Positions 7 through 93 of a stretch of 235 nucleotides of DNA are shown piece by piece; positions within the stretch are counted from its first letter, which is position 1; the number at the start of each line of letters is the position of its first letter. A program made the position numbers and the translations under genes. The notes beneath the pieces were generated by a model. That model was not told the origin of the DNA. It searched no databases and saw only the letters and a list, made by a program, of their open reading frames with translations. Source of the DNA: Escherichia coli (GTDB taxonomy: Bacteria > Pseudomonadota > Gammaproteobacteria > Enterobacterales > Enterobacteriaceae); the NCBI RefSeq assembly GCF_003334385.1, contig NZ_QOWN01000225.1; one strand, 5' to 3'.

Positions 7-42
7 GCCTGATGCGACGCTAACGCGTCTTATCAGGCCTAC
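7..42 (+). repeat. REP palindromic unit, Z-like (GCCTGATGCG type), complete
   Basis: Direct: stem arm 7-20 GCCTGATGCGACGC pairs with arm 25-38 GCGTCTTATCAGGC (reverse complement GCCTGATAAGACGC) around loop 21-24 TAAC. The arms match except for the central dinucleotide (GC versus AA), the asymmetric mismatch typical of REPs. The unit ends with the conserved GGCCTAC head at 36-42. Confidence 0.88.
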
Positions 43-59
43 AAATTCCCGCGCCATCC

Positions 60-93
60 GTAGGCCGGATAAGGCGTTTACGCCGCATCCGGC
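60..93 (-). repeat. REP palindromic unit, Y-like (GCCGGATGCG type), complete, inverted relative to the preceding unit
   Basis: Direct: GTAG head at 60-63; stem arm 64-76 GCCGGATAAGGCG pairs with arm 81-93 CGCCGCATCCGGC (reverse complement GCCGGATGCGGCG) around loop 77-80 TTTA, with the same GC/AA central mismatch. Read on the minus strand it is GCCGGATGCGGCGTAAACGCCTTATCCGGCCTAC. Confidence 0.88.

Follow-up and report, generated by a model that had tools for sequence, protein, structure and literature searches.

BIME-2 elements comprise y and z2 REPs, each with GTAG as its tail and two mismatched bases in its stem, which occur as tandem copies separated by short linkers and whose copy number varies between strains (PMC3333891). 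Both the GTAG and the stem mismatch are needed by TnpA_REP, which cleaves and recombines BIMEs in vitro (PMC3333891), and the K-12 rayT is located at 247637-248134 (supplement, bioRxiv 10.64898/2026.03.23.713779). Gyrase also acts at these elements: its cleavage sites are over-represented in BIME-2, chiefly in y REPs, with strong ones in a subset only (PMC6379681), and the majority of BIME-2 sites lie in between supercoiling regions (PMC10592627). In the genome, REPs have been reported to be strongly biased to the 3′ ends of tandem and convergent genes.

At the RNA level, stable hairpins that lack a U tract, REPs included, set the steady-state 3′ ends of Rho-terminated transcripts genome-wide and block PNPase and RNase II (PMC6061677). 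The closest described array is REP325, which is located between yjdM and yjdN. Its deletion lowers expression of the upstream yjdM and raises that of the downstream yjdN approximately 10-fold, and the array produces a ladder of truncated transcripts and is partly Rho dependent (bioRxiv 10.64898/2026.03.23.713779). Experiments have thus shown that it stabilises the mRNA upstream and attenuates the gene downstream. REPs do not lengthen mRNA half-lives uniformly, and their effects depend on context, as reported by Harris et al. (bioRxiv 10.64898/2026.03.23.713779). For inverted REP pairs, Bertels and Rainey (2011) describe “two different REPIN folds”, a hairpin and a “clover” of lower stability, the latter being thought to be recognised by the RAYT (PMC3116915, Fig. 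S11 legend).

Here, a segment of one such array is described. Every element of the finding has been reported before, including the idea of two folds (REPIN hairpin versus “clover”; PMC3116915), and it carries little weight as a discovery, as REP/BIME-2 arrays, their hairpins, stabiliser and attenuator roles, gyrase binding and RAYT processing have all been described. What is provided is a quantitative answer: the long fold that joins two REPs is predicted to be competitive or preferred thermodynamically, and the comparative record points to selection on the local hairpins.

The REP31 array between mhpE and mhpT

The window, that is, the whole stretch of 235 nt that was analysed, spans 2.3 periods of REP31, a nine-REP BIME-2 array in the mhpE-mhpT spacer of E. 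coli K-12. It is 100% identical to K-12-type E. coli chromosomes and corresponds to the reverse complement of MG1655 375091-375325. The intergenic spacer that holds the array is 577 bp in length. The supplementary data of Harris et al. 2026 (bioRxiv 10.64898/2026.03.23.713779) enter REP31 at 374931-375366, with mhpE/mhpT as its tandem pair, and these coordinates coincide with the whole nine-REP array around the window. Both mhpE, encoding 4-hydroxy-2-oxovalerate aldolase, and mhpT, encoding the 3-hydroxyphenylpropionate transporter, are on the minus strand of the window, and the operon transcript is therefore the reverse complement of the strand that was folded in the initial annotation of this DNA. 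The practical yield is a clean annotation, in which the window belongs to REP31, in the mhpE-mhpT spacer, and is antisense to both genes. The mhp operon is inducible and is poorly expressed in standard conditions. A literature search on mhpT/mhpE transcription turned up no Term-seq or 3′-end data for the spacer.

When REPs were typed by four type-specific stem bases (GGCC for Y and TATA for Z), the order of the nine was Y-Z-Y-Z-Y-Z-Y-Z-Y, with the first Y degenerate and the strands alternating between plus and minus (sampled locus L001). Across strains, REP31 alleles carry 9, 5, 3 or 1 REPs, and the spacer measures 577, 377, 274 and 175 bp, respectively. The alleles differ in steps of approximately 101 bp, which is one Y+Z2 period, and the flanks are otherwise conserved. 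These natural 1-, 3-, 5- and 9-REP alleles would be a handy series for asking how an intercistronic REP array is tuned by the number of its copies.

The initial annotation had described a REP array in which Y-like and Z-like units are repeated every 101 bp. Both statements hold, as Tandem Repeats Finder gives a period of 101 with 2.3 copies and 97% matches in the window, and the units alternate between Y and Z2. Each 101-bp period is made up of two imperfect palindromes of different type and opposite orientation. The Z2-type palindrome reads GCCTGATGCGACGC-TAAC-GCGTCTTATCAGGC followed by CTAC and is found at 7-42, 108-143 and 209-235; the Y-type palindrome reads GTAG followed by GCCGGATAAGGCG-TTTA-CGCCGCATCCGGC and is found at 60-93 and 161-194. 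The first unit of each type is GCCTGATGCGACGCTAACGCGTCTTATCAGGCCTAC (7-42) and GTAGGCCGGATAAGGCGTTTACGCCGCATCCGGC (60-93). In a global alignment, 7-42 and the reverse complement of 60-93 are identical at 29/36 positions (80.6%), in line with the roughly 80 percent given in the initial annotation.

The window opens within a head-to-head linker (AGTCGTGCGCAGAT, 14 nt when whole), the 3′ part of which occupies 1-6 and is recognised by its register with 94-107 and 195-208. This is followed by a Z2-type REP at 7-42, which is GTAG-first on the minus strand and which, on the plus strand, is an “iREP” that ends in CTAC at 39-42. Its local stem pairs 7-20 with 25-38 around the loop 21-24 and contains a G14.T31 wobble and a C15.T30 mismatch. 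The type-specific bases of this unit, T10-A35 and A17-T28, are compensated inside the unit. The tail-to-tail linker (AAATTCCCGCGCCATCC) at 43-59, which has the 17 nt stated in the initial annotation, is the loop of the long hairpin. The Y-type REP that follows at 60-93 is on the plus strand, with its GTAG at 60-63, a local stem of 64-76/81-93 around the loop 77-80, and a conserved bubble of A71.C86 and A72.G85.

The next head-to-head linker (AGTCGTGCGCAGAT, 14 nt, 94-107) is the loop of a second inter-unit hairpin, in which Y 60-93 is paired with the Z2-type REP at 108-143. The latter is on the minus strand and is identical to 7-42. The second tail-to-tail linker (AAATTCTCGCGCCACCC, 17 nt, 144-160) has two differences from 43-59, and the second Y-type REP (161-194, plus strand) has the loop TTCA instead of TTTA. 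A second full copy of the 14-nt head-to-head linker spans 195-208, and a third Z2-type REP on the minus strand begins at 209 and is cut by the window end at 235. GTAG is present at 60-63 and 161-164 on the plus strand and at 42-39 and 143-140 on the minus strand. The AA/GC stem bubble is present in every copy in the window, and each REP of the array as a whole is an imperfect 13-14-bp hairpin with the conserved two-base bubble.

Several other readings of the array were rejected. The open reading frames of 22-39 aa are generated by the repeat and recur in step with its 101-bp period, and all annotated genomes have the region as intergenic, so that coding potential was dismissed. A sequence scan found neither a U-tract terminator nor a sigma-70-like promoter inside the array, which removes an intrinsic terminator or internal promoter as an explanation; the sole terminator-like hit of the scan is within mhpT (L001 2833-2813, minus strand). 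MIR5274 and other microRNA-like or Rfam hits score far below their gathering scores and are given by any long hairpin.

Energetics and kinetics of the competing folds

The initial annotation had called this segment highly structured, and the folding energies agree. The RNA minimum free energy (MFE) of 1-101 is -48.7 kcal/mol for the plus strand and -58.6 kcal/mol for the minus strand, against shuffle means of -30.9 and -34.6. These correspond to z = -5.3 and -7.5, respectively, and 0/200 shuffles fold as well.

It had also been proposed that each unit can form either a hairpin of its own or, with its neighbour, one longer hairpin. Both folds are recovered computationally. A repeat search finds the within-unit palindromes 7-20/25-38 and 64-77/80-93 (14 nt, 86% complementary) as well as the inter-unit arms 26-42/60-76 (88% complementary) and 6-26/74-94 (81% complementary). 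In the unconstrained MFE structure the units form the long hairpin, looped by the 17-nt linker, and a span-limited fold produces the two local hairpins. The energies of these two, given below as long/local in kcal/mol with RNA parameters, can therefore be compared. For 7-93 they are -43.1/-42.4 on the plus strand, with 24% local at equilibrium, and -53.0/-48.3 on the minus strand, which is the mhp sense strand and for which the local-only fraction is 5e-4. The long pairing is thus not far less stable than two local hairpins, the outcome that had been named as contradicting the proposal.

With the linker halves included, the values for 1-101 are -48.7/-43.8 (plus) and -58.6/-49.7 (minus). The strand asymmetry arises because the ends of the sense-strand linker pair with one another. 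Here, the ends of 43-59 contribute G.U and A-U pairs on the minus strand, which stretches the GTAG/CTAC helix to 11 bp. DNA parameters rank the long and local folds in the same way. On the sense strand, the two folds differ at defined bases: the pair of bubble adenines in each Z2 unit (complementary to window 30-31, 131-132 and 232-233) is left unpaired by the local fold and forms A-U pairs in the long one, whereas the type-specific bases (complementary to window 10, 17, 28 and 35 and to 67, 74, 83 and 90) are paired locally and mismatched in the long hairpin.

Pairing is not confined to one register. Over the 14-nt head-to-head linker, Y 60-93 can pair just as well with the Z2 that follows it (108-143), and for this second register (60-143) the values are -46.8/-42.4 on the plus strand and -50.8/-43.2 on the minus strand, with a local-only fraction of 3e-6 on the mhp sense strand. 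Without the GTAG/CTAC tails, the Y-Z2 dimer is 84% local on the plus strand. Neighbouring REPs are thus predicted to pair into an imperfect hairpin of approximately 35-40 bp in either register, and by these calculations the long fold matches or exceeds two local hairpins in thermodynamic stability, above all on the mhp sense strand.

The full nine-REP spacer folds at equilibrium into a single nested hairpin (Y1.Z4, Z1.Y4, Y2.Z3 and Z2.Y3), and when the growing chain is folded at equilibrium, the optimum register jumps with every added REP. As in vivo structures, the whole-array fold and these register shifts were rejected as kinetically unrealistic, with per-dimer barriers of up to 13-21 kcal/mol. 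The folds predicted for this array consequently number more than two, as each REP has two possible partners and the whole array nests at equilibrium. The two alternative folds of the initial annotation are both predicted; that there are only two does not hold. The folds it described on the plus strand are recovered, but that strand is antisense to mhpE/mhpT, and the sense strand is predicted to favour the long fold. Overall, its observation is confirmed and its interpretation is supported in part.

Barriers between the folds were estimated with findpath, which gives heuristic upper bounds; conversion to timescales (seconds to minutes or hours) assumes a rough prefactor of 1e6 per second, making them indicative only. 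With both hairpins already present, conversion of local to long faces a barrier of at most 12.7-15.4 kcal/mol. In the sense transcript, emergence of GUAGG is enough for the hairpin at the tail-to-tail linker to form and to fray the base of the first REP. The inner inter-REP helix is then favoured by 2-6.5 kcal/mol before the 3′ arm of the second REP exists, and the barrier during emergence of this REP does not exceed 8.6 kcal/mol. In head-to-head dimers, the local fold persists up to the point at which the downstream tail emerges. From these simulated paths we infer that local hairpins would nucleate first during transcription, and that the tail-to-tail long hairpin would be reached by strand invasion in seconds to minutes, within transcription or the lifetime of the mRNA.

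The predicted dominance of the long form at equilibrium on the sense strand (local-only 5e-4) is hard to reconcile with a function of the local hairpins as units, unless there is an influence of kinetics or of proteins.

Conservation of the local hairpin and a proposed function of the array

Which of the two folds is conserved was assessed in a wider set of REPs. A pattern scan of species-representative genomes produced 120 loci (1.03 Mb), and a fuzzy search produced 342 REPs. The 120 loci are mostly from E. albertii and E. coli, with some from Citrobacter and a few with other taxon labels. For two contigs with odd taxon labels (L092 and L095), simple contamination with E. coli was rejected, as they have no megablast match to E. 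coli.

Among the 342 REPs, stem position 4 is G-C in 221 and T-A in 96, and stem position 11 is G-C in 192 and A-T in 126; the two positions are canonical within units in 95-96% of cases. The AA/GC bubble is present in 328/342. The type of a REP also constrains its neighbour. Of 147 adjacent inverted pairs, 98 combine Y with Z, 22 combine Y with a third type, and none (0/147) is Y-Y or Z-Z, against a homotypic share of approximately 36% expected from random pairing at the observed type frequencies.

Covariation was counted in 61 distinct tail-to-tail dimers, aligned and scored for the pairs of each fold; the counts are of cells from paralogous copies, which are non-independent events, in a sample anchored on the REP consensus. 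In the local fold, for which 25/26 pairs were counted in the correct register (the second local helix, columns 27-52, lacked its outermost pair), 10 pairs and 134 cells have changes on both sides. The resulting covariation of 0.247 compares with 0.109 in shuffles and is reached by 0/500 of them. The long fold behaves in the opposite way. It has a single double-change cell versus approximately 43 expected, a covariation of 0.057 that is below the shuffle mean of 0.108, and 85.1% paired cells versus a shuffle mean of 89.4%, a level that 500/500 shuffles reach or exceed.

As the type-specific bases are compensated within units and neighbours are of different type, it is the local hairpin that is maintained by selection, with the complementarity between units a by-product of inverted, homologous units. 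In addition, because adjacent units are never of the same type, the long helix is always mismatched and anti-covaries. Y/Z heterotypy therefore weakens the long helix systematically, to a level worse than chance pairing. For REPIN-type doublets this means that the inverted arrangement is conserved while the long helix is not. Within-unit compensation was noted earlier in qualitative terms by Ton-Hoang et al. (PMC3333891, Fig. 1 legend). Conservation of the local hairpin could be imposed on ssDNA by RAYT recognition instead of by RNA function, since TnpA_REP requires the GTAG and the stem mismatch.

We consider it probable that REP31 is best explained as a BIME-2 array of locally conserved hairpins that protects the upstream mhp mRNA and attenuates mhpT. 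This function is inferred by analogy with REP325 and other BIMEs. Once mhp is transcribed, the stable, U-tract-free hairpins would block 3′-5′ exonucleases and so protect the upstream mhp mRNA, and they would damp read-through into mhpT, partly via Rho. Either fold could serve both purposes. The roles cited in the initial annotation, mRNA stabilisation and modulation of flanking genes, are those documented for such arrays (PMC6061677; bioRxiv 10.64898/2026.03.23.713779). At the DNA level, the array may be a gyrase target and a substrate for the RAYT (REP-associated transposase), and the latter is proposed to be the reason that strains carry 1, 3, 5 or 9 REPs.

Two other readings place the function in the inter-unit pairing. 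In one, the long, REPIN-type hairpin is the dominant functional conformer in vivo, and switching between long and local folds regulates mhpT or the position of the 3′ end. In its favour, both strands have the long fold as their MFE, only 5e-4 (7-93) or 3e-6 (60-143) of sense-strand molecules are predicted to be purely local, invasion across the tail-to-tail linker is favourable once the 5′ arm of the second REP emerges (barrier at most 8.6 kcal/mol), and the folds are nearly isoenergetic on the plus strand (24% local), which is what a switch needs. However, the long helix anti-covaries and Y/Z heterotypy is obligatory; naRNA4 of REP325 has local hairpins as its MFE; and the REP325 ladder has transcripts with about 2, 3 and 4 hairpins, so that odd numbers occur. 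We also know of no ligand, protein or signal that flips a REP fold switch, and this reading is improbable. An even less probable one is that Y/Z heterotypy was selected to keep local and inter-unit folds near-isoenergetic, with the array acting as a register-shifting, strand-asymmetric “zipper” of RNA or ssDNA. Here, the penalty of the four type-specific mismatches for the long helix would roughly equal that of the conserved bubble for the local helices. If true, array orientation, transcript end and copy number would set the conformer mix and, through it, where exonucleases stop, how Rho gains access and what the RAYT recognises. Near-isoenergy on one strand, the 0 homotypic neighbours and the inversion of REP31 relative to REP325 are consistent with a zipper of this kind.

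The remaining readings concern DNA, or RNA that is independent of the operon. It is possible, if somewhat doubtful, that the array is chiefly a gyrase-binding site or topological barrier, perhaps with cruciform extrusion of the REPs, and that RNA folding is incidental. Gyrase cleavage in BIME-2 prefers y REPs, loops and stem mismatches and rises when transcription is blocked (PMC6379681), BIME-2 elements are mostly between supercoiling regions (PMC10592627), and DNA-parameter folding also supports both hairpin forms. Against this are the restriction of strong cleavage sites to a subset of BIME-2 elements (PMC6379681), the lack of support for long-range REP-REP chromosomal contacts in a Hi-C re-analysis, and the compatibility of such a site with a role in RNA. 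That REP31 is a selfish or neutral element maintained by REPIN/RAYT activity, with hairpins kept for RAYT recognition of ssDNA and RNA structures of no selected host function here, we regard as rather unlikely. The host does tolerate large differences (1 to 9 REPs between strains, with conserved flanks), the most conserved features, GTAG and the stem mismatch, are the requirements of TnpA_REP, the REPIN literature favours replicative units (PMC3116915), and the effect on mRNA half-life is non-uniform (Harris et al.). Set against these are the clear local effects of REP325 deletion on expression, the strong bias in REP location towards the 3′ side of tandem and convergent genes, and the preference of gyrase for BIME-2 in vivo; moreover, selfish maintenance is compatible with protection and attenuation and does not exclude them. 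Finally, the Y-linker-Z2 dimers could be genes for naRNA4-like, nucleoid-associated small RNAs that condense the chromosome with HU, as in the original reports by Qian et al. (PMC4550694). RF02564 (naRNA4) matches 63-140 on the plus strand (87.2 bits) and on the minus strand (62.0 bits), and a truncated second match covers 164-235 on the plus strand (68.1 bits), all three being above the gathering score of 59.5 bits. But RF02564 in effect models any BIME-2 Y-Z2 dimer, and the best-scoring plus strand is antisense to the mhp genes. Furthermore, deletion or overexpression of REP325 had no effect on nucleoid volume and a stable HU-crfDNA-naRNA4 ternary complex was not found (Harris et al. 2026, bioRxiv 10.64898/2026.03.23.713779), so that this last reading is very improbable.

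REP31 compared with known systems

REP31 shares the following characters with BIME-2: Y and Z2 alternate in inverted orientation, each REP is an imperfect palindrome of 30-40 nt with GTAG on the 5′ side of its stem foot and a two-base bubble, and the array is extragenic and variable in copy number. The copies are in tandem, with two short linker types, 17 nt tail-to-tail and 14 nt head-to-head; in BIME-2, linkers are classed by letter, as S between REP and iREP and as s, l or r on the flanks. In the characters shared, nothing essential differs from the definition. Intrinsic terminators are also similar in part, as a REP is likewise a GC-rich, stable stem-loop 3′ of a gene with similar energetics (PMC6061677), but the U tract is absent after every REP of the array. 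REPs work by blocking exonucleases and by Rho-linked attenuation, and not as intrinsic terminators.

Like REP31, REP325 (naRNA1-6) is a BIME-2 array between tandem genes with a period of approximately 100 bp, and its Y and Z2 are nearly identical to those of REP31. The 17-nt linkers are of the same family, with 14/17 positions alike (REP325, GGAGGGTGCGGGAATTT; REP31, reverse-complemented, GGATGGCGCGGGAATTT), and the head-to-head linker is AGTCGGCACCGTT in REP325 versus AGTCGTGCGCAGAT in REP31. REP325 has 12 hairpins as described, or 11 by pattern scan, whereas REP31 has nine REPs. The arrays also differ in direction: REP31 is inverted relative to transcription, so that in mhp mRNA Z2 is the GTAG-oriented unit and Y the iREP, which makes the analogy inexact. 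When the 77-nt naRNA4 of REP325 was folded here, its MFE was the two local hairpins; in contrast, the tailed dimers of REP31 are predicted to prefer the long fold.

The REPIN is the closest precedent for the two folds. It consists of two inverted REPs with a short spacer, for which a long hairpin in ssDNA or RNA is predicted to be more stable than two local hairpins, and the same prediction is obtained for the window with both RNA and DNA parameters. In P. fluorescens REPINs, compensatory changes across the long hairpin are reported to be common (PMC3116915), whereas the enterobacterial Y/Z2 dimers are heterotypic and anti-covary. In REP31, moreover, the doublets are chained, leaving each REP with two possible partners.

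Array edges and unit copy number

Degenerate REPs occupy the edges of the array in REP31 and in the alleles of other strains, and the internal copies are near-identical to one another. In K-12, the degenerate edge element is GTAGGCCGGACAAGACGTTTATCGCATCCGGC, which is the first REP of the array and lies outside the window (positions 2961–2992 of L001, the K-12-type locus carrying the whole array). In other strains, the degenerate edge REPs include GACC-type units, at 596–629 of L125 and 394–425 of L126. Because the edges are degenerate and the internal copies near-identical, the sequences are consistent with the 101-bp unit expanding and contracting internally, rather than being added at the array ends. 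A further BIME-type cluster is present approximately 2 kb from the window, in the fghA–yaiL intergenic region (L001, about 800–1000), where a pattern search located tail-to-tail Y/Z dimers starting at 805 and 905.

A third REP type and Y-type REPs on contigs of other taxa

A third REP type, designated GATC for the stem bases G..A/T..C at its type-specific positions, accounts for 25 of the 342 REPs sampled from loci L004–L123. In this sample, its preferred partner is Y (22 neighbour pairs), and it too is compensated internally. We take this type to be probably Z1 or a related class.

Single Y-type REPs, each with GTAG and both stem arms identical to the E. coli Y consensus, are present on four contigs labelled as other taxa. 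Two of these belong to a MAG labelled Pseudomonadales with 59–62% GC (L092, 5540–5574; L093, 2896–2930), the third to a MAG labelled Thioalkalivibrio with 67% GC (L095, 2094–2125), and the fourth is a 262-bp contig labelled Desulfosporosinus sp. OT (L096, 172–205). L092 and L095 gave zero megablast matches to E. coli genomes, and simple E. coli contamination is therefore excluded for these two; L096 could be contamination. These elements may reflect REP/RAYT families common to distant Gammaproteobacteria, or the contigs may be mis-binned.

Strand asymmetry and the adjacent "NusG plus" region

The predicted RNA stability of the 577-nt mhpE–mhpT spacer (L001 2868–3444) is strongly asymmetric, being -312.3 kcal/mol for the mhp sense strand versus -271.0 kcal/mol for the antisense strand. 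The difference comes from positions of the stems and of the 17-nt linker that are able to form G.U pairs. A supplementary entry of Harris et al. (bioRxiv 10.64898/2026.03.23.713779) places a "NusG plus" region, M_N10_352, at MG1655 375401–375492 on the minus strand, with an annotation stating that it lies near REP31 and runs antisense to the 5' UTR of mhpT. This region lies 35 bp beyond REP31 on the mhpT side, and the minus strand of MG1655 corresponds to the plus-strand direction of the window. If the label, whose meaning is uncertain from that entry, denotes Rho/NusG-dependent termination, antisense transcripts would largely end just before REP31, and the strand concerned would be the one folded in the initial annotation. 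Relative to its own operon, the sister BIME-2 array REP325 (yjdM–yjdN) has the opposite orientation to REP31.
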